IMG/VR virus record: IMGVR_UViG_3300042975_000096
Strand: one strand, 5' to 3'
DNA: 64,000 bases
Source: a virus
Lineage: Duplodnaviria > Caudoviricetes
Part shown: positions 4,434 to 43,338 of the stretch, in pieces
Layout of the letters: the number at the start of each line of letters is the position of its first letter
Numbering within the stretch: the stretch's first letter is position 1
Made by a program: the position numbers and the translations under genes
The notes under the pieces: model-generated
Database searches by the model: none
The model's input: only the letters and a program-made list of their open reading frames with translations
Told to the model about the DNA's origin: nothing

Positions 4434-5369
4434 TTAATAGTTAGTAACCAACACTTCAACTGTTTTACTAACTCTATCCTTTTTATGATAGCTTGCATTA
4501 CCATAATCATAATTCAAATAATGCACATTATATTTTTTAGACCAACCAATTAATAAATCATTGCTTTTCCCATTAACCTCAAATACATTTGATAATGCAA
4601 ATTTACATTTTAATGAATTTAGCAAATCAAACAAATCTTGTTCTTCTTTTTCCGTCCATAATTTATTATAAACCGAATCCGTTATTAAATACGGAACATC
4701 ACAATAAATTAATGTATTCTTATCTATATTATTAAAATCAATTTTTCTAAAATCTTTATTCATAAAAGCAATATTCTTTTGTTTCATTAAATTAGAAAAA
4801 TCAACTACTTTTTTTCTTAGTCTTTTATTGAAATCGGATTTGCCAACAGGCATATTATAATATCCATCTTTATTAAACCGAATTTGATTGTTAAATGAAA
4901 ACATAATTATTGCAAAAAACAATTCAATATCAATAATCCCTTGAGTTTTTAAATCATTAAAATCTTCTCTTAATGCAAGATAATTTTCCTTATTATAATG
5001 ACTCAATCCCCAATTATTATGTCCATTATTATAATATTTAATGCCATTTAAATGTGATTCCGATAAATGATAGTCATTAACAATATTTTCAATATTATGA
5101 ATAATCACATTAGATTCTGTTTCGTTCAAATATTTCAACAATCGAATTACATATGAATCAATATCATTCATAATTACATTTTTTGATTTAACGTTAATAC
5201 CTACATTACCGCCACCACAAAACAAATCAATAAAACTATCTGTATCATAAAACAACGGAATTATTTGTGGCAATAATTTATATTTTCCCCCTGTATAATT
5301 TAACGGACTTTGTACGAAATCCATCCCATATTTCTCTCCCCATCTAAATAATGGGATGCTATTGCACAT
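4434..5369 (-). CDS. dam: DNA N6-adenine methyltransferase (Dam/D12 family)
   Basis: SPLNYTGGKYKLL, DLFCGGG, RFNKDGYYNMPVG, IYCDVPY (DPPY variant), EVLVTNY; true start probably the internal Met (MDFVQ). Confidence 0.88.
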   Translation of the reverse strand: MCNSIPLFRWGEKYGMDFVQSPLNYTGGKYKLLPQIIPLFYDTDSFIDLFCGGGNVGINVKSKNVIMNDIDSYVIRLLKYLNETESNVIIHNIENIVNDYHLSESHLNGIKYYNNGHNNWGLSHYNKENYLALREDFNDLKTQGIIDIELFFAIIMFSFNNQIRFNKDGYYNMPVGKSDFNKRLRKKVVDFSNLMKQKNIAFMNKDFRKIDFNNIDKNTLIYCDVPYLITDSVYNKLWTEKEEQDLFDLLNSLKCKFALSNVFEVNGKSNDLLIGWSKKYNVHYLNYDYGNASYHKKDRVSKTVEVLVTNY

Positions 5370-5380
5370 CCCATCTCATA

Positions 5381-5767
5381 TTAATAATCGTATTCATCGC
5401 TATAATCGTAATATTGTTCTGCCTCATCATAAATATATTCGGCAATATTTTTCAAAAAAGTATGATTGTGAACCAAATCTGAAATAGTTTCGCTTTTATC
5501 ATCATTCGAAATAGTAACATCATTATCGTATTCATAATCTTCCATTGCAATTTCAATCAATGCAAATAAAAATTCTTTATCGTCTTCTAAAGAATCTTCT
5601 AAACAAGCCATTTCTTCATCCGTTCTATTTTCATAGTTAATCATATCTTTGGCATCTGTTTTGCAAAAATTATCTAATTCTGTTTTTAATCTTCCTGTTG
5701 GTTCTTTTGTAAAATCAATGATTTCATTGTCATAACTTTTTGAGGCAATTAATCGTTTTTTTCTCAA
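5381..5767 (-). CDS. Hypothetical acidic protein
   Basis: 128-aa ORF overlapping the upstream stop. Confidence 0.6.
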   Translation of the reverse strand: MRKKRLIASKSYDNEIIDFTKEPTGRLKTELDNFCKTDAKDMINYENRTDEEMACLEDSLEDDKEFLFALIEIAMEDYEYDNDVTISNDDKSETISDLVHNHTFLKNIAEYIYDEAEQYYDYSDEYDY

Positions 5768-6156
5768 TTTTCCTTAAACTCCTTTTCTACTGTTGATTCA
5801 CTAGAAGATGTATCTTTATTATCGTGATTAAGATTTTCTTCTTCAACCTCTCTATCTTCCATATGTTCGCAATCATCTTTAATTATCTTATCCAAATGAC
5901 CTTCTAATTCTAAGCGGTCATCGTCTTCATTCTGAACAATATTATTATCATACAGAAAATATTGTAAAATGGTTTCATCCCAATCTGAAAATTTATCTCT
6001 CATCCATGCTTTAAATATTTTGCCAATACGTTGTGCTTCATCGTTATCGTCTTCGTGAATATCCAAAACATATTTCATAGTTAAAATAATTGATTTTCTT
6101 TTTCTACGTGGTTTTGCTGTGGTCATCTTTGTTAAACGTTTTTTCAACAAACTCAC
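5764..6156 (-). CDS. Hypothetical protein
   Basis: 130-aa ORF with AAGGTAGG RBS. Confidence 0.6.
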   Translation of the reverse strand: MSLLKKRLTKMTTAKPRRKRKSIILTMKYVLDIHEDDNDEAQRIGKIFKAWMRDKFSDWDETILQYFLYDNNIVQNEDDDRLELEGHLDKIIKDDCEHMEDREVEEENLNHDNKDTSSSESTVEKEFKEN

Positions 6157-34444: not shown

Positions 34445-34550
34445 ATTTCAATTCACGCACCTCGTGCGAGGTGCGAGCCGGACAAGCAAGAGATTAGAAG
34501 AAATTAAGCCCGCGCATTTCAATTCACGCATCCGTCTAGCGAGGTGCGAC
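34445..34550 (-). CRISPR. Single-spacer type I-C mini-array 2
   Basis: Repeats 34445-34477 and 34516-34550 equal the consensus plus single-base insertions; ~38-nt spacer. Confidence 0.85.
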
Positions 34551-34752
34551 AGCACCCATGCCGAAGCCTTGCTAGTGCAAGGGCTGAAATGGCACTTTGT
34601 GCGAACCCCTAATCATTTTACAAAATTCATTTACATATCCCCATGCAAATACGTATGAACCCTATAAAACAAAGGGGTGCGAAGCACCTAGTGTTTTTCT
34701 GTTCACTTATGCTTCGCACTTATTATAACATTTCACTTATTCTATTGTCAAG
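34551..34752 (-). promoter_or_regulatory. CRISPR leader copy 2 with sigmaA promoter
   Basis: Same leader; TTGACA (34751-34746)-N18-TATAAT (34727-34722). Confidence 0.9.
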
Positions 34753-34770
34753 TATTAATATTTAATTTTA

Positions 34771-36472
34771 TTAAAGATTATCAATATCTATTTTGTCAGA
34801 ATTTGATTCAATAAATTGTCTTCTCGGCAAAACATTCTTTCCCATCAGCACTTCGAATGTATCAGCCACTTCTTTTGCTTCATCTAAATTAATGCGTTTC
34901 AATGTTCTTGTTTTTGGGTCTAATGTTGTTTCGCCTAGCTGTTCAGGATTCATCTCCCCAAGCCCTTTAAACCGGTTCAGTGTATATTTATCTTTTGCAT
35001 GTTTTTGACGATATTCCCGAAGTTCTGAATCATCCAACAAATATACAGAAGAATTGTCTGATTTAATAATTCTATACAATGGTGGTTGTGCTGAATATAC
35101 ACGACCAGATTCAATTAATCCAGGCAAATAATAATAAAACAATGTTAAAATTAAGCTTCTGATATGATTTCCATCAACATCCGCATCGGCCATAATGATA
35201 ATTTTATCGTATCTTACATCGTCTACGCTAAATGTTTTGCCAACACCACCGCCAATAGAAGCAACAATGCTTTTTACTGTATCTGAATTTAAGATTTTAC
35301 CAATATCGGCTTTATTAACATTTAGAATCTTACCTCTTAATGGCAAAATAGATTGATATGTTCTATCTCTTCCTTCTTTTGCCGAACCTCCAGCGCTATC
35401 GCCTTCAGTTAAGAATAATTCTCGATAACCGTTTTTATTACTACATTCTGCCAATTTTCCTGGCAAAGCAACTTTAGAAGCTTTTTTTGTCTGTCTACTA
35501 ATGCTTCTAGCTTTTCTTGCTGCTTCTTCAGCTTCTTTTACTTTTGAAGCTCTATTAATAATAGAATCAAATACATCGTACAGTTTTTTATTTTTAATCT
35601 CTTTATCAAAAAAATCATGCATGATTTTTTCAACTGCTTCTTGTGCTTCTTTATTTCCTAATTTTGTTTTTGTCTGTCCTTCAAATTCCGCTTCTGGAAT
35701 TTTAATGGATATAGTGCAATACATACCATCCATAAGATATTTCATTTCAATAGGGTCTTTAATTAATTTTTTATCAATTCCATATTGATTAATAATATCC
35801 TTATAAGCGTTTTTAAATCCTTGTAAATGAAAACCGCCCTCATATGTATTAACATTATTTGCAAATGATTTTATTTTTGTATTTGGTTCAGCTTCATCGT
35901 CATGAATAAATGCAATATCACATAAAATCAATTGACCATTAGGCAATTCATATTGTCCAAAAAATGAAAAAGGATTATCATATAACTTTATTTTTCCTTC
36001 AATCATTTTCATTGTATATCCAGTAATACCATCTTCAAAATGATAAACTGTATCTGTTTTATCCACATCGTTAATATATCTGATTTTAATTCCAGGATTT
36101 AATGATGCCAATTCTTTCAATCTGTTATTTACATGTTCACTAGGATTTAATGTGATTTTGAAAATAGATTTATCAGGATGGTATTTTATTTCCGTTCCCG
36201 TTTCTGTTGTTTTGCCAATTTGTTCAACATCAGAGGTAGGAACACCCCTAGAAAATGTTTGTTTATAAATTGCCCCATTACGTTTAACAACAACCTCAAA
36301 ATTATCCGCTAGTGCATTTACGCAAGTAACACCAACGCCGTGCAATCCACTCGAACAATTGCCAACAACAATATTATTAATGTTATACGTATGTGTATTT
36401 TTTACATTTAAATCATAGATTTTACCTTTGTATGCTTCTTTATTTATTTCTTTTACTCGGAATAAATTTCAA
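34771..36472 (-). CDS. gyrB: Split-intein C-half (~38 aa) fused to the GyrB C-extein; apparent 1-nt insertion near 36457
   Basis: AGGGGG RBS and TTG at 36472; MKFIP/VKEINKEAYKGKIYDLNVKNTHTYNINNIVVGN|CSSGLHGVGVTCVNAL..; then EGDSAGGSAK, PLRGKILNV, DADVDG, RFKGLGEM. Confidence 0.9.
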
Positions 36473-36498
36473 AATTAACGCCCCCTATTTACAAAATA

Positions 36499-37354
36499 TT
36501 ATATGGAATTACAAATTCTTTTTGCAATTTCTCTCATCGCTGGTTGAAAAACAGTTCTTCCTGCACGTTCATATAGTTTAGAATCAGATAAACCACAAGA
36601 TAAAATTTTGTCAATACTTTCATCTTCAATTCCTTGCAATCTAAAACATTCTCTAGGCGTTAATTTTCTCAATCTATTATTGTCAATAATCAGTGGCACG
36701 TTATTTCCACCGAGTACCCATAGAAGCTGTCAATGTTGGACAATATCCTTGAAATCTTCTAAAATTTCCACGTCTGTATTGATAGATACATATTTCGCTA
36801 TCATTTTTTGATATACTTTCGAGGATAGGAAATATTTTTCCGGTACGTTGTCCTCTAATATGTCCGACAATGAACACCCTTTCTCTGAGGACGGGATACC
36901 CAAAATTTTTTGCGTTGACACATTGCCATTCAACATCATACCCCAATTTGTCCAACTCCCAGAGTATTCGTTTAAAGCTTTCTCCGTTATCATGATTCAA
37001 TAACCCCTTTACATTTTCAAACCAAAACATCTTTGGCTTTTTTATTTTCAAAATCTTTGCCAATTCAAAAAACATTTGTCCTCTAGGGTCTTTTGAGGCA
37101 AATCCTTCTCTATCTCCTGCAATTGAAAACTTTGCACATGGAAAACCACCACATAACAAATCAATATCAGGAAGTGTATTGTAATCATAAGTTCGAATAT
37201 CTTTATCGTATGGCATTTCATTAAACAATGATTGATATATTGTCTGTGATGCAATTTCATAATCTGAACTGAATACACATTTCGTATCAAACTTTTCTAA
37301 TGCCAATCTAAATCCACCTATGCCACAAAACATATCTGCATATTTGATAGTCAT
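36499..37354 (-). CDS. C5-cytosine methyltransferase homolog, candidate carboxymethyltransferase; 1-nt insertion at ~36712
   Basis: DMFCGIGG, GGFPC, ENV, RERVFIVG, TLTASMGT/GGNNVP, RKLTPRECFRLQG, motif X LYERAGRTV. Confidence 0.85.
36730..36993 (-). CDS. Nested alternative-frame ORF, EcoHK31I beta-like
   Basis: SWTNWGMMLNG..PSSEKGCSLSDILEDNVPEKYFLS; lies wholly within the methyltransferase gene. Confidence 0.6.
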   Translation of the reverse strand: MITEKALNEYSGSWTNWGMMLNGNVSTQKILGIPSSEKGCSLSDILEDNVPEKYFLSSKVYQKMIAKYVSINTDVEILEDFKDIVQH

Positions 37355-37406
37355 TATTATTTCCTCTTCTCATAAAATATTTACTATACTTTTTAGTATA
37401 TTAAAA

Positions 37407-37691
37407 TCATTTTGATGTATATTTTTTTGGTTTTCCATTTTCATCCAACACATTACCGCCAATAACATATGAGATTGAATATTTAGCATGTACTGCTGTG
37501 ACATAGTATTCATATTTCGTATTTTTATCAGCAACAATATAATAATCCTCTCCAAATTGTTCTACAAATATAAACTGTGATGAGTCATTACAAAAATCTT
37601 CACCAGTTTTTCTATTAACACTAGCGTTCCCTGTACATCCTGCCAATACAAGCGTACACACAATTAATACGATTGAAATGTATTTTTTCAT
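37407..37691 (-). CDS. Small lipoprotein
   Basis: MKK + hydrophobic stretch + LAGC lipobox. Confidence 0.75.
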   Translation of the reverse strand: MKKYISIVLIVCTLVLAGCTGNASVNRKTGEDFCNDSSQFIFVEQFGEDYYIVADKNTKYEYYVTAVHAKYSISYVIGGNVLDENGKPKKYTSK

Positions 37692-37703
37692 GATAACCCT
37701 CTT

Positions 37704-38627
37704 TTACAAATATTTTTCTACTTGTTTTGCCAAATTCTCTGCAAATAATGATGGTATTCCACTACAACGTTCATATTGTTTTGCTAATGGAATGTTTACA
37801 TCAAAGCAAAACGTATCAGGAACGCTCTGTATTCGTAAACATTCACGTACTGTAAATCTTCTAGGAGGATTTATTTGCGTTTTTCTTATATCGTAATTTG
37901 CTGGTGATGGGTATAACGGCAACTGTCTTGCACAAGAAACGATAGTAAATGATTGTTCATTCCATTGCCGTTGCCTGTTCCTAGAAATATATCTAGAAGA
38001 AAATCCACCATCATAATACTCATAATGATTAAAAGACTCATATTTTTTAGCAGGAATAGGTAAATCATGTATTGCATCATAAAGAGTTTTCTTTGGTAAT
38101 GTGTTAGGAAACTCAAAATTATCATTATGAATTCCAACAACAAAAACTCTTTTCCTGTCTTGTGGAATTCCATAATCAGATAGATTCATTAACTTGAATT
38201 TTACAATATATCCCATATTTTCAAATGATTGAATTAAAAAATTAAAAAACGCGCAATGTTTTTTACTAACCAATCCTGCAACATTTTCAATAACAAATGC
38301 TTTTGGTCTTTTATCATTAACAATACGCATAAACTGCAAACTTAAATCGCCATTCTTTTCATCATGTACTCCTTTTCCGCTTCCTGCAACACTAAATGGC
38401 TTACAAGGGAAACCTCCAATGATTACATCCGAATTAGGAATATCTGATGATTTTAACTTTCTTATATCTTTACACACAGCATTGAATTTAATATTTTTAA
38501 TATAAGTATCAACCGCATATTGATTATTATCAACTGCATAATTTATATCAAAAACATTTTTAAATCCCATTGCCCCTATACCTGCACCACAAAACAAATC
38601 TGTTACAGTATACATATTCTTAATCAT
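37704..38627 (-). CDS. dcm: C5-cytosine DNA methyltransferase homolog
   Basis: DLFCGAG, GGFPCKPFS, IENV, PQDRKRVF, RRFTVRECLRIQ; atypical motif X (QYERCSGIP). Confidence 0.88.
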   Translation of the reverse strand: MIKNMYTVTDLFCGAGIGAMGFKNVFDINYAVDNNQYAVDTYIKNIKFNAVCKDIRKLKSSDIPNSDVIIGGFPCKPFSVAGSGKGVHDEKNGDLSLQFMRIVNDKRPKAFVIENVAGLVSKKHCAFFNFLIQSFENMGYIVKFKLMNLSDYGIPQDRKRVFVVGIHNDNFEFPNTLPKKTLYDAIHDLPIPAKKYESFNHYEYYDGGFSSRYISRNRQRQWNEQSFTIVSCARQLPLYPSPANYDIRKTQINPPRRFTVRECLRIQSVPDTFCFDVNIPLAKQYERCSGIPSLFAENLAKQVEKYL

Positions 38628-39325
38628 CCTTTTATCGCAATATATCCTTCAAAATTCAACATACGCCAAAAAGTTTCAACCTTTGCAAACCCTGCTTGAT
38701 GCAATAATTCTTTATTCCATTCTGAAGTAACTGGAACCAAAACTCCAGCCAATGATTTTCTTTTTTCTTCAATTTGCTCTTTTGAATATCCATTTTCATT
38801 TTTTAATTGATAATAGCTATCTACTAACAAATTATTAATTGTATTACATGAACCTAAAACCTTTTCAACAAAAATAAAAATCCCATTTTTATTTAAAGAA
38901 TCATAAATGTTTTGTAAAATTTGCTGTCTATTTTCAATTGGTGTGAATTGAATTGTTAGCACAGACATAATAATATCAAAATTATTTGTACCAAAATCTT
39001 CTTCTAAAATGTCTCGATTCATGATTTTAATGTTATCTGCGTGTTCAAATCTTTTTTTTGCTTTTTCAATCATCGGTTCAGAAACATCAATTCCTAAACA
39101 TTGGTATTTATTGTTATTTTCAAATGGGATTAAGTTTAATCCATTTGAACATCCCAAATCCAAAACGTTTCCGCTTTTATGTTTACATAGCATTTGTATT
39201 GTTTTTCGCATAACATCATATTGTGGAATTGAACGTTGTAACATATCCTCAAAACAATCTGCTACTTGTTCGTCAAATTCCCACTTGCCATTAACGTGGA
39301 TTTTATCTTTTGCCATATTAATCAC
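38624..39325 (-). CDS. cmoA: CmoA-like carboxy-SAM synthase
   Basis: WEFDEQVADCFEDMLQRSIPQY, LDLGCSNG, TIQF, FVEK, GYSKEQIEEKRKSL, AGF..LNFEGYIAIK. Confidence 0.85.
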   Translation of the reverse strand: MINMAKDKIHVNGKWEFDEQVADCFEDMLQRSIPQYDVMRKTIQMLCKHKSGNVLDLGCSNGLNLIPFENNNKYQCLGIDVSEPMIEKAKKRFEHADNIKIMNRDILEEDFGTNNFDIIMSVLTIQFTPIENRQQILQNIYDSLNKNGIFIFVEKVLGSCNTINNLLVDSYYQLKNENGYSKEQIEEKRKSLAGVLVPVTSEWNKELLHQAGFAKVETFWRMLNFEGYIAIKG

Positions 39326-39693
39326 TAGCCTTTATATACATATAAAAATCTTCATCAACATTTTTAAAAAATAAATAACATTTCCTTTTATCGTTGAACG
39401 TATAATTAAAACTATCTTCTGTATATGGAGCATTAATGTTATTCGTCATCTTGCCAATTTTATCAAAGTTTTTTTCTACAAGAAAATTTTTAATATCATA
39501 ATCCATTGGCAAAAACAATGATAGATATTTCCCTTTTGAACATTTTCCAACGTCTGTATGTATTTCAAACTTTGTGCCCAACCATACTTTCATCACCATA
39601 TCTTACAATTTCTTCATCTTTAGATATAGCCAATTTATATACTGTATATCCATCGCCTTTTGTTGCTTGTTCAAATCCTTGTGATATTTTCAT
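39318..39693 (-). CDS. Hypothetical protein (probable indel near 39590)
   Basis: GAGGTG RBS and ATG 39693 give MKISQGFEQATKGDGYTVYKLAISKDEEIV.., which overlaps ORF 39318-39599 in another frame. Confidence 0.45.
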
Positions 39694-39702
39694 AAATCCA
39701 CC

Positions 39703-40419
39703 TCAAAATTTCACTTTATCATAAATAGGAATTTCTTTTTTCAATTGTTCTACATCATCCGTATCTTCTAGTTCAATTAAAAAATCTTCTTTTTTGACAT
39801 TCTCTATTTTTTCCCAATATAATGTATCATTACGTTTAATTAATACATAGTGACCATTTATAGCAGACAGCTTTTTGTCATTTTTCAAAACAATTGAGTT
39901 AACATCACCGTCATAATCATATGAATATACCTCTGAAACTTCGTCAGATTCGTTGTAACAGTTTTTTACTCTGCACCCTACTACTACTTCACTTATTTTT
40001 TTAACGCCCTTAGAAGTGATTACAGGGCTGTTCTCGACGAAACACTTATAACCACTATCACCACCAAATTTACCACCGGCATGAAGTCTAGTAAGAATAC
40101 CTGTTAATGTATCTTGTGGTGAACCATCTTTGTTTTTCCATTCAGGATGTGTTCCAACAGGAATTCCGCGACCTTCATCTGTACTCGTTACCGTTCCATC
40201 TTTGTGAACATGAATGGTAATATTTTCGCCAAATCCTGCCGTATATTCGTCGATGGAATTATCAATAACTTCATAAACTAATTGGTCTATGCCTGATTGT
40301 GAGGTACTACCGATATACATACCTGGACGTTTTCTAACGGCTTCCAACCCATTCAATGATTTAATCTGGTTTACATCATAATCATTTTTCACTTTTAGCA
40401 TTTCTTGTTCTTTAGTCAT
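39703..40419 (-). CDS. gyrB: GyrB N-extein fused to split-intein N-half (113 aa from Cys at 40044)
   Basis: GLEAVRKRPGMYIGST, EVIDNSIDE, DEGRGIP, LHAGGKFGGDSGYK|CFVENSPVITSKGVKKISEV..SAINGHYVL..WEKIENVKKEDFL. Confidence 0.92.
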   Translation of the reverse strand: MTKEQEMLKVKNDYDVNQIKSLNGLEAVRKRPGMYIGSTSQSGIDQLVYEVIDNSIDEYTAGFGENITIHVHKDGTVTSTDEGRGIPVGTHPEWKNKDGSPQDTLTGILTRLHAGGKFGGDSGYKCFVENSPVITSKGVKKISEVVVGCRVKNCYNESDEVSEVYSYDYDGDVNSIVLKNDKKLSAINGHYVLIKRNDTLYWEKIENVKKEDFLIELEDTDDVEQLKKEIPIYDKVKF

Positions 40420-40514
40420 TTTAATTTTATCCCCTCTCATCGTCATATATATTCATTGTATTTATTTTATTAAAAAAAATAAAGGATGAAAATTATTCAC
40501 CCTTTATTTTTCAA

Positions 40515-41745
40515 TTACTTATCTTCTTCTGTTTCGTATAACTGTTGACCTTTATCCTTAAGTACCCATGCAATAATTAAATTAAATACAAATATTGCAG
40601 AAAATAGATACATAATTAATTGATAAGAACCAAACACTGATTTTGTAAACGTAAGCAAAAGTGGACCAGCAATTCCTGCAAATCCCCAAGCTGTTAAAAT
40701 TCTACCATGAATTGTTGACAAATGTCGCGTTCCAAAAATATCACTAAGATATGCTGGCATACATGAAAATCCACCACCATAGCATGTAATAATCATCAAA
40801 ACAAACAATTCAAACAAAAACTCGTTCGTTGTCGTTGCCAACAAGAAGAACATTACAATTTCAAGTACAAAGAATGTAACATATGTATATCCACGACCAA
40901 TATAATCAGAAATTGTAGCCCAAACAATACGACCGAAGACCATTAAGCAATCCGACAATACCAACTAAAGCCGCTGCTCTTGTTGGCGAAAAACCAACAA
41001 CCTCTTGTGCCATAGGTGAAACAACAGATAACAATGCAATACCACAAGAAATATTTATGAAAAAAATAATCCACAACGCTTTAAACTGCCATGTACTATA
41101 AACTTCTTTTGGTGGAATATCCTCTCCAATAAAATCTTCTGCTTCATTGTATCCTTTTGGTGGAGCTAAATATAATGATGACAATGCCATAATAATCATG
41201 TAGGCAAATCCCAAAATCAAGAAATTGCTAACCAATCCATATGTAGAAGATAAAAACTGCATTAAAGGAGCAGCAATCAATGCAGCAAATCCAAATGACA
41301 TGATTGAAATTCCTGTTGCAAAACCTCTATTTTCAGGAAAATATTTAACCAGTGTAGATACAGGAGTTATATAGCCCAATCCCAATCCACAACCGCCAAT
41401 AACACCATAGAACAAATACAACAAAAATAAACTATGTAGAGATAATGCCAATGAAGTTCCAAACAATCCCAACCCAAAAAAGGCAGAAGCCAATAAACCA
41501 ACTTTTTTTGCACCCCACTTATCAACTAGATTCCCAAAAAATCCTGCTGATAATCCAAGGAATAAAATTGCCAATGAAAATGCAAATGTTGTTTGTGATA
41601 AAGACCATCCATTCTCAGCAATAATTGGATTTACCAAAACGCTCCATGCATATACGCTACCAATCGAAATATGGATTCCACCAGCTGCTAATGCAATCAA
41701 CCATCGATTCCTTTGTAGTTTTGAAAATACTTTTTTCATAACCAT
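40515..41745 (-). CDS. OFA-family MFS transporter (oxalate/formate or lactate type); 1-nt insertion at ~40938
   Basis: NRWLIALAAGGIHISIGSVYAWSV, GLGYITPVSTLVKYFP..RGFATG, NG/FGRIVWATISDYIGR, YGGGFSCMPAYLSDIFG. Confidence 0.88.
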
Positions 41746-42681: not shown

Positions 42682-42783
42682 GTAAAATCACCTATTATCT
42701 ATTTTTTTAATAATGTCCTTCTTTAACTAAGAAATTCTCATTTCTATGAAATTAATACATCTTGTTTACATAAAATATTTGTC

Positions 42784-43137
42784 GTTTTTATTCACGCACC
42801 CATACGGGTGCGACCATTTGAACGCTTCTGCTAGTTTTGCATCTTTTTCATTTCGATTCACGCACCTCTGCGAGGTGCGACTTCAAGTTCAGAAAAACTA
42901 TATTTACTTGTATATTTCAATTCACGCACCTCTGCGAGGTGCGACTTGTAGGTGGTACAACCGCATCGTGCATTTCAATTCACGCACCTCTGCGAGGTGC
43001 GACATACTTTTTTAAGTTTCTTTATTTCATTCTTTATTATTTCAATTCACGCACCTCTGCGAGGTGCGACACATCAGAGCTGAAAACTGTTGATGATAAG
43101 CAGTTATTTCAATTCACGCACCTCTGCGAGGTGCGAC
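42784..43137 (-). CRISPR. Type I-C-like CRISPR array 3 (6 repeats, 5 spacers)
   Basis: Repeats at 42784 (degenerate), 42850, 42914, 42972, 43039, 43106; spacers 35, 32, 26, 35, 35 nt. Confidence 0.96.
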
Positions 43138-43338
43138 AGCACACATGCCAAAGCCTTGCTATGCAAGGGCTGAAATGGCACTTTGTGCGAACCCCTAACC
43201 ATTTTACAAAATTCATTGACATTTCCCCATGAAAATAAGCATGAACCCTGTAAAACAAAGGGGTGCGAAGCACCTAGTGTTTTTCTGTTCACTTATGCTT
43301 CGCACTTATTATAACATTTAATTTATTATTTTGTCAAG
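43138..43338 (-). promoter_or_regulatory. CRISPR leader copy 3 with sigmaA promoter
   Basis: Same leader; TTGACA (43337-43332)-N18-TATAAT (43313-43308). Confidence 0.9.

Follow-up and report, generated by a model that had tools for sequence, protein, structure and literature searches.

A candidate phage CmoA–CmoX-type cassette for cytosine C5-carboxymethylation in DNA, with two transferase homologs of different lineages

The 64,000-nucleotide stretch of viral DNA analysed here (IMG/VR record IMGVR_UViG_3300042975_000096; Duplodnaviria, Caudoviricetes), which we call the window, encodes a homolog of the carboxy-S-adenosylmethionine (Cx-SAM) synthase CmoA and two homologs of DNA cytosine C5-methyltransferases (C5-MTases), designated dcm1 and dcm2. 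An earlier note, made from the letters of this DNA, had read these genes as a system that makes its own Cx-SAM and writes 5-carboxymethylcytosine (5cxmC), possibly at two motifs. The cmoA gene (39325..38624, minus strand; 233 residues) is followed by dcm1 (38627..37704, minus strand; 307 residues), whose ATG overlaps the cmoA stop by 4 nucleotides, and further downstream by dcm2 (37354..36499, minus strand; 284 residues without a spurious base at 36712), an arrangement that the earlier note had described correctly. From 40446 to 34771, the minus strand reads in the order N-terminal part of gyrB, a small open reading frame (ORF), cmoA, dcm1, a 94-residue ORF, dcm2, and the rest of gyrB. The window is phage DNA, with genes for baseplate proteins, a DnaB-type helicase, RecJ, GyrA, and a ClpX-like ATPase; its G+C content is approximately 30%. 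Near-identical DNA is present in bioreactor-sludge and wastewater metagenomes from 17 studies, and a megablast search against GenBank phages found no near-identical phage.

A system of this type has been characterized experimentally in Synechococcus phage S-B43 (CmoA-CmoX-CmoY; Yang et al., Nat Commun, December 2025; PMC12783734; CmoX structure 8YF3), and it is the natural cyanophage example to which the earlier note had alluded. The S-B43 CmoA (SpCmoA) is a very active synthase of Cx-SAM, SpCmoX accepts only Cx-SAM and carboxymethylates the cytosine of GC motifs, and CmoY is an asparagine-synthetase-like ATP-dependent ligase that adds glycine to 5cxmC (PMC12783734). Arg350 of SpCmoX replaces Asn304 of M.HhaI and contacts the carboxylate; the R350N primer in the supplement identifies R350 as the Arg of the G-R pair (PMC12783734). 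In the same work, 5cxmC blocked HhaI, and 5,615 candidate CmoX sequences (SPPC plus Arg350) and 4,257 CmoA sequences were counted in phage data (PMC12783734). The cassette type and its chemistry were already published in 2025, and the window is not a discovery of chemistry.

The best NCBIfam family of the CmoA homolog is TIGR00740 (E = 5e-50, 170.4 bits; residues 9–232 on profile positions 9–239 of 239), and the next unrelated family is BioC (E = 6e-14). The closest solved structures are H. influenzae YecO (1IM8, E = 3e-36) and E. coli CmoA (4GEK, E = 1e-30). In the HMMER alignment to 4GEK, a Lys-Arg pair of the homolog aligns with K198-R199 of E. coli CmoA, and a matching pair is found in 1IM8, in agreement with the earlier statement that the Arg199 equivalent is kept. 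Arg199 of CmoA forms a salt bridge with the carboxymethyl group (PMC3663124). SpCmoA (L003:6083-6778) has K-E-K in a pairwise alignment where the E. coli and window proteins have K-R; either the alignment slips by one residue or the phage enzyme uses Lys. No ORF among those scanned in the window matched the CmoB-like family PF08003, and the earlier note had likewise seen no cmoB-like enzyme in the window.

Motif IV of dcm2 reads GGFPCA and motif X reads LYERAGRTV. The catalytic Pro-Cys, ENV, and RxR motifs are present, the nucleophile is Cys73, and the variable region is very short. Arg266, encoded by the AGA codon at 36558..36556 (minus strand) that the earlier note had singled out, aligns with Asn304 of M.HhaI (HMMER) and with Arg350 of SpCmoX (MAFFT), and Ala74 aligns with Gln82 of M.HhaI (HMMER). 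The CmoX-defining Arg is therefore present; the literal SPPC is replaced by GGFPC, with the Pro-Cys dyad intact. In the window, dcm2 is split into ORFs of 217 and 66 residues by an extra base at 36712 (ACT-C-GGT), with a stop after codon 217, which the earlier note had missed. The read-through protein (P0001) matches TIGR00675 (E = 2.5e-71) and M.HhaI (E = 1.9e-43), and the two pieces match PF00145 with E-values of 1e-57 and 2e-06. The contigs of four out of four public sludge and wastewater runs, three of which belong to studies other than the possible source, omit exactly this base, and they also omit a second base at 36458. The dcm2 orthologs in the viral contigs L004 and L005 are each in one frame. 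Because the contigs of all four runs omit base 36712, we regard the frameshift as an error of the record and dcm2 as a normal 284-residue gene. The L004 ortholog is intact and 68% identical, lies directly after cmoA in a 281-kb phage contig that is 98% complete (G001), and is the sole C5-MTase homolog found there. We predict that dcm2 is a clear addition to the Arg-type CmoX enzymes, although its lineage shares only 27% identity with SpCmoX.

Several side observations concern the dcm2 gene and its orthologs. The cmoA-dcm2 pair of L004 (L004:2499-4557) adjoins an IS200/IS605-type TnpA/TnpB-like pair and is not inside gyrB, so the cassette occupies different places in related phages. The ortholog at L005:4735-6669 (plus strand) is interrupted precisely at its motif IV nucleophile Cys (GGFP / C...HN / CAKFS) by a complete intein, which has an insert of the size of an endonuclease. 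Within dcm2 itself, an 88-codon ORF in the +1 frame (36730-36993, minus strand) is also open at the equivalent place in the L004 and L005 orthologs. A library-wide search with this ORF gave 528 matches (best E = 1e-16, approximately 50% identity), many of which were predicted as ORFs in the +1 frame of ordinary HhaI-like C5-MTase genes (L194, L195). Other matches seem to carry the domain in frame (P0218, P0149, P0122), and a local BLAST search against approximately 200 fetched C5 enzymes gave no match. Because such ORFs occur in ordinary HhaI-like genes, the conserved open alternative frame appears to be a trait of the methyltransferase subfamily and not of the CmoA system.

The other transferase homolog, dcm1, matches PF00145 with E = 1.3e-66, and its alignment with M.HaeIII spans the whole protein, target-recognition region included (E = 3.5e-48, 36% identity). 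Its AlphaFold model has a predicted local distance difference test (pLDDT) score of 87.9; the best Protein Data Bank match is 1DCT, with a template modelling (TM) score of 0.89, and 8YF3 ranks 15th. The catalytic Pro-Cys, ENV, and RxR motifs are present, motif IV reads GGFPCK, and motif X reads QYERCSGIP, as the earlier note had read it. The RCSGIP segment (residues 287–292; 37769..37752, minus strand) forms a loop between helices 281–286 and 293–306 in the model, and this loop is one residue shorter than the canonical one. The earlier note had announced an Asn-to-Arg exchange in motif X of the C5 enzymes; this is true of dcm2, where Arg266 stands for Asn304, and not of dcm1, which has no basic residue there and belongs to an arginine-less clade. 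By the published definition, dcm1 is not a CmoX, as it has neither an R350-equivalent Arg nor the literal SPPC (it reads GGFPC), and we place it beside CmoX only as an enzyme that may work like one. Besides dcm1, the clade has over 100 members, which are encoded by phages, Bacillota prophages, and plasmids. Among the best 120 homologs of dcm1, motif X is RCSG[IV]P in 113, RTSGIP in five, and of the canonical Gly-Asn (GN) type in one. The closest GN-type relative (P0063) is of no use as a negative control for CmoA linkage because its gene lies 530 bp from the contig start. A single-sequence search of the viral contigs with dcm1 retrieved nothing, and an alignment-based search was required.

Loci around relatives of dcm1 and dcm2 were collected from viral contigs and genomes; each C5 gene was assigned to a class according to its motif X, and the locus was searched for CmoA. 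Because the compared loci are relatives retrieved with dcm1 and dcm2 as queries, the following counts are not phylogenetically independent. CmoA is encoded in 47 of the 51 loci with an ERxGR enzyme (class A, the type of dcm2), and in all four remaining loci the gene lies at a contig end. It adjoins the gene in 24 of 25 RCSG[IV]P loci (class B), and the neighbour genes are CmoA by NCBIfam. Counted separately, the RCSGIP loci with CmoA are 14 of 14, and the 'PVCK...RCSGVP' subgroup gives 8 of 8. None of the 98 canonical GN enzymes has CmoA in its locus. Direct look-ups added a Paenibacillus prophage and a B. cereus element (L191/L192, one locus listed twice), both with a class B gene and CmoA immediately upstream. 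Among the fetched loci, the association of CmoA with an altered motif X is thus far beyond chance, and it never involves a canonical GN enzyme. In Bacillota and in viral contigs, the class B clade, to which dcm1 belongs, appears to be tied obligatorily to CmoA. The PVCK subgroup has Pro-Val-Cys-Lys and not Phe/Pro-Pro-Cys in motif IV (L096, L098, L099, L112, L136, and L151, at approximately 4950-6000), and all of its genes stand beside a CmoA approximately 50% identical to that of the window.

In some of these loci, dcm1-type genes stand alone with cmoA. The closest relatives of the window (L084/L085), whose CmoA is 82% identical and whose cassette lies at the same site inside gyrB, have cmoA and the dcm1 type only, so that CmoA there has no other possible partner. 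The Paenibacillus and B. cereus loci also have cmoA with the dcm1 type alone. Furthermore, a gene for a CmoY-like ligase adjoins cmoA in six class B loci (L089, L090, L091, L092, L096, and L149). In L089, for which the coordinates were compared, the gene order is as in S-B43, with the ligase gene between cmoA and the class B gene. Because a CmoY-like ligase needs a carboxyl handle, it makes little sense next to a plain methyltransferase. In the window, a tblastn search with SpCmoY found nothing better than E = 2.8, and no ligase family was found among the scanned ORFs; the 98%-complete 281-kb relative G001 has neither a ligase nor CmoB.

The two classes share changes around the cofactor pocket. 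At the alignment column of HhaI Gln301, three residues before position 304, all 47 class A and all 47 class B enzymes have an Arg, and none of 83 GN-type enzymes does. This residue is Arg347 in SpCmoX, Arg263 in dcm2, and Arg287 in dcm1, and it is followed by Cys in most members of both classes. All 47 class A enzymes have lost the Gln that follows the catalytic Cys, with Ala at the Gln82 position in 45 of them, and so have about two thirds of class B, where the residue varies (Lys, Thr, or Gln) and some members keep PCQ in motif IV. In a tree calculated without the columns of motifs IV and X, class B forms a single clade (Shimodaira–Hasegawa-like approximate likelihood ratio test, 96), sister to GN-type HaeIII-like enzymes of Bacillota prophages; starred branches separate class A, which needs at least two origins among the GN-type enzymes. 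The pocket changes are therefore found in more than one lineage, in every case alongside CmoA. Neither Arg347 nor an arginine-less class is mentioned by Yang et al. (PMC12783734). The Arg at the Gln301 column, seen here in alignments, may help to determine the use of Cx-SAM, a role that has so far gone unnoticed.

The cassette resembles that of S-B43 in that a phage CmoA homolog lies directly beside a C5-MTase homolog with no CmoB. Both dcm2 and SpCmoX have the E-R-x-G-R motif X, in which Arg occupies the R350 position, and the residue that follows the catalytic Cys is small in both (Ala and Ser, respectively). There are also clear differences. The window has two transferases of different lineages, whereas S-B43 has one; dcm1 and dcm2 are 27–28% identical to SpCmoX and have FPC in place of SPPC; and dcm1 lacks R350 altogether. 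The window has no CmoY ligase, so no glycine amide is expected, and its CmoA is closer to bacterial CmoA, keeping Arg199 where SpCmoA has K-E-K. It also belongs to a low-GC jumbo-type phage from sludge and wastewater, with another host and habitat. Compared with the bacterial CmoA/CmoB pathway to cmo5U34 (5-carboxymethoxyuridine) in transfer RNA (tRNA), the window shares the synthase family and the conserved Arg199, but it has no CmoB, and the acceptor enzymes are DNA C5-MTase homologs.

Engineered enzymes provide further comparisons. A basic residue at the motif X Asn in M.MpeI N374K and M.MedI N377K leads to Cx-SAM-dependent formation of 5cxmC, and the Arg of dcm2 is a natural equivalent. 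However, those are CG-specific enzymes with a single exchange introduced in the laboratory, and they still use S-adenosylmethionine (SAM), whereas the window combines a pocket with several co-varying natural changes (Gln82, Gln301, and Asn304) with its own cofactor supply. In M.HhaI, the group to be transferred lies between Gln82 and Asn304, and the Q82A exchange reduces methyl transfer and shifts the preference to larger groups (PMC3526304). The same two conserved pocket positions are altered in the Q82A/Y254S/N304A variant of M.HhaI, but this variant was made to accept synthetic propargylic cofactors and lacks a charged residue that could select a carboxylate (PMC3526304). M.HaeIII, which recognizes GGCC, aligns with dcm1 from end to end as described above, but it has xIGNAVP in motif X where dcm1 has RCSGIP, and the dcm1 clade is the one linked to CmoA.

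The reading that best explains these gene contents, residue equivalences, intact genes, and gene linkages is a phage CmoA–CmoX-type cassette for C5-carboxymethylation of cytosine in DNA with two working transferases, which we consider probable. By homology, CmoA would convert SAM and host prephenate to Cx-SAM. The dcm2 enzyme would use normal C5 chemistry, with Cys73 attacking C6, and its rebuilt pocket (Ala for Gln82 and Arg266 for Asn304) would direct carboxymethyl transfer, a step modelled on SpCmoX with Arg350 binding the carboxylate. The dcm1 enzyme, translationally coupled to cmoA, would be a second Cx-SAM-dependent transferase, a role that we assign with lower certainty than that of dcm2. 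It probably targets GGCC-like sites because its target-recognition domain is HaeIII-like. It lacks Arg304, the GN being replaced by a shorter Ser-Gly loop, and we infer that the invariant Arg287 helps to hold the carboxylate. Since no CmoY-type ligase was found in the window or in the 281-kb relative, 5cxmC itself is the likely end product, and it would mark two kinds of site. The mark would protect the phage genome from host restriction, as suggested by the block of HhaI in the S-B43 work. That at least one of the two enzymes writes 5cxmC is very probable, and that both do so is somewhat favoured. The reading proposed in the earlier note is thus supported: it fits every comparative test that was run and matches S-B43.

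Beyond the chemistry, we propose that the RCSG[IV]P clade forms another natural class of DNA cytosine carboxymethyltransferases, independent of the published one and acting through the short motif X loop and the Gln301-column Arg, and that the phage deploys both classes from one cmoA; we lean slightly towards this proposal.

Several points weigh against the two-enzyme reading, in addition to the shared ancestry of the compared loci. The CmoA homolog, at 170.4 bits, lies under the curated TIGR00740 equivalog cut-off of 193.3 bits. However, SpCmoA, which is experimentally active, scores 115.6 bits, and the CmoA neighbours linked to CmoX score 130–165 bits; because these also fall below it, the cut-off appears to be set too high for phage copies. 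dcm1 has Ser or Gly, and no basic residue, at HhaI position 304, the one position shown to matter. The presence of Arg is in itself no proof, as DNMT3-type enzymes carry an Arg near position 304 yet use SAM. M.MedI, a wild-type Asn enzyme, shows only weak carboxymethyl transfer. Finally, a class B gene in Vibrio crassostreae and an RTSGIP variant have no CmoA within 5 kb. V. crassostreae, a gammaproteobacterium, has its own cmoA, and the host gene may explain this exception.

The strongest alternative is that only dcm2 carboxymethylates, whereas dcm1 is an ordinary SAM-dependent GGCC-type methyltransferase making 5-methylcytosine (5mC) that stands beside cmoA by chance. The lack of Arg or Lys at position 304, the full-length alignment with M.HaeIII, the PCQ kept in motif IV of some clade members, and the Vibrio and RTSGIP genes without a neighbouring CmoA all agree with this. 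A chance neighbourhood is, however, difficult to reconcile with CmoA next door in 24 of 25 RCSG[IV]P loci against none of 98 GN-type relatives, with the dcm1 type as the sole possible partner of CmoA in L084/L085, Paenibacillus, and B. cereus, and with the CmoY-like ligase, which needs a carboxyl handle, beside the class B gene in six loci. The invariant Arg and the Cys of motif X that dcm1 has in common with the Arg-type enzymes also argue for carboxymethylation by dcm1, and we consider the alternative unlikely. It is far less probable that neither enzyme uses Cx-SAM, that CmoA has some other function, for instance draining host SAM or feeding host CmoB (tRNA cmo5U), and that both enzymes write 5mC. 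Depletion of SAM is a known phage counter-defence, a possibility raised in the discussion of the S-B43 work (PMC12783734), but the pocket changes at Gln82 and Asn304 go with CmoA without exception, and SpCmoX, which has this Arg too, works with Cx-SAM only. In addition, M.HhaI transfers methyl groups less well when it carries Q82A, and CmoB was not found among the window ORFs scanned. We rejected the notion that dcm2 is decaying as a pseudogene or is expressed only through programmed +1 frameshifting, which has a negligible probability: the stop after codon 217 would call for a one-base skip at 36712, but this base (like 36458) is missing from the contigs of the four runs, the L004 and L005 orthologs are in one frame, and there is no slippery site.

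The additions to the work of Yang et al. are the RCSG[IV]P clade linked to CmoA and CmoY, the Gln301-column Arg, and the presence of both classes in one cassette. The SPPC plus Arg350 signature may be too narrow, since it misses the arginine-less CmoA-linked clade, which in several phages is also linked to CmoY. If this clade is active, the recognition rule for DNA carboxymethyltransferases must be revised, and existing counts would underestimate the spread of 5cxmC, particularly among Bacillota prophages. The Gln301-column Arg, common to all CmoA-linked enzymes, could guide the engineering of carboxymethyltransferases for methylome sequencing. One cofactor gene could serve two transferases with different target-recognition domains, which would be a simple way to broaden anti-restriction protection.

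The small ORF upstream of cmoA (39599..39318, minus strand), whose end overlaps the cmoA start, is conserved with the cassette in L084/L085 as a 124-residue ORF. It has no match in Pfam, NCBIfam, or the Atlas. A role as a chorismate mutase supplying prephenate was considered, and nothing was found in its favour. The public-run contigs differ from the window by 1-nucleotide indels at 39574-39577, and for this reason the N-terminus of the small ORF in the window may be wrong. Between dcm1 and dcm2, the 94-residue ORF (37691..37407, minus strand) has a lipoprotein-like N-terminus, with only weak matches of the signal-peptide type, and is not present in L084/L085. The stretch at 37469-37665 within it is a hot spot of variation: one run has a diverged sequence there, and another has 1419 different bases in its place. 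A promoter and terminator scan of 34500-40700 gave counts at chance level and nothing usable on transcription units.

The modification cassette occupies a 3.2-kb gap in gyrB, which is divided by a naturally split intein (39703-40446 and 34771-36490, both minus strand). The N-terminal part of gyrB (40446..39703, minus strand) ends in ...GYK followed by an intein N-fragment with a weak match to the Pfam family Intein_splicing. When base 36458 is omitted, an intein C-fragment of approximately 40 residues ending in ...NNIVVGN runs directly into CSSGLHGVG of gyrB, the remainder of which lies at 36345..34771 (minus strand). L084/L085 have the same gyrB and intein arrangement, plus a second intein further along. 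Compared with the short-read contigs of the four runs, the window record contains single-base indel errors at 36458, 36712, and 39574-39577. A major facilitator superfamily transporter gene at 40515-41745 is split in the window into ORFs of 279 and 149 residues and is an intact 409-residue gene in L084/L085; this split is probably another indel error of the record. Repeated peptide strings in the ORF translations at approximately 34464-34658 and 42746-43232 point to short DNA repeat arrays flanking the region.

In the window, GGCC occurs 12 times (approximately 31 expected) and CCGG 15 times (approximately 29 expected). GATC occurs 0 times in the 64 kb against approximately 175 expected, and a D12-class (Dam-like) N6-adenine methyltransferase is nevertheless encoded at 4434-5369 (minus strand).

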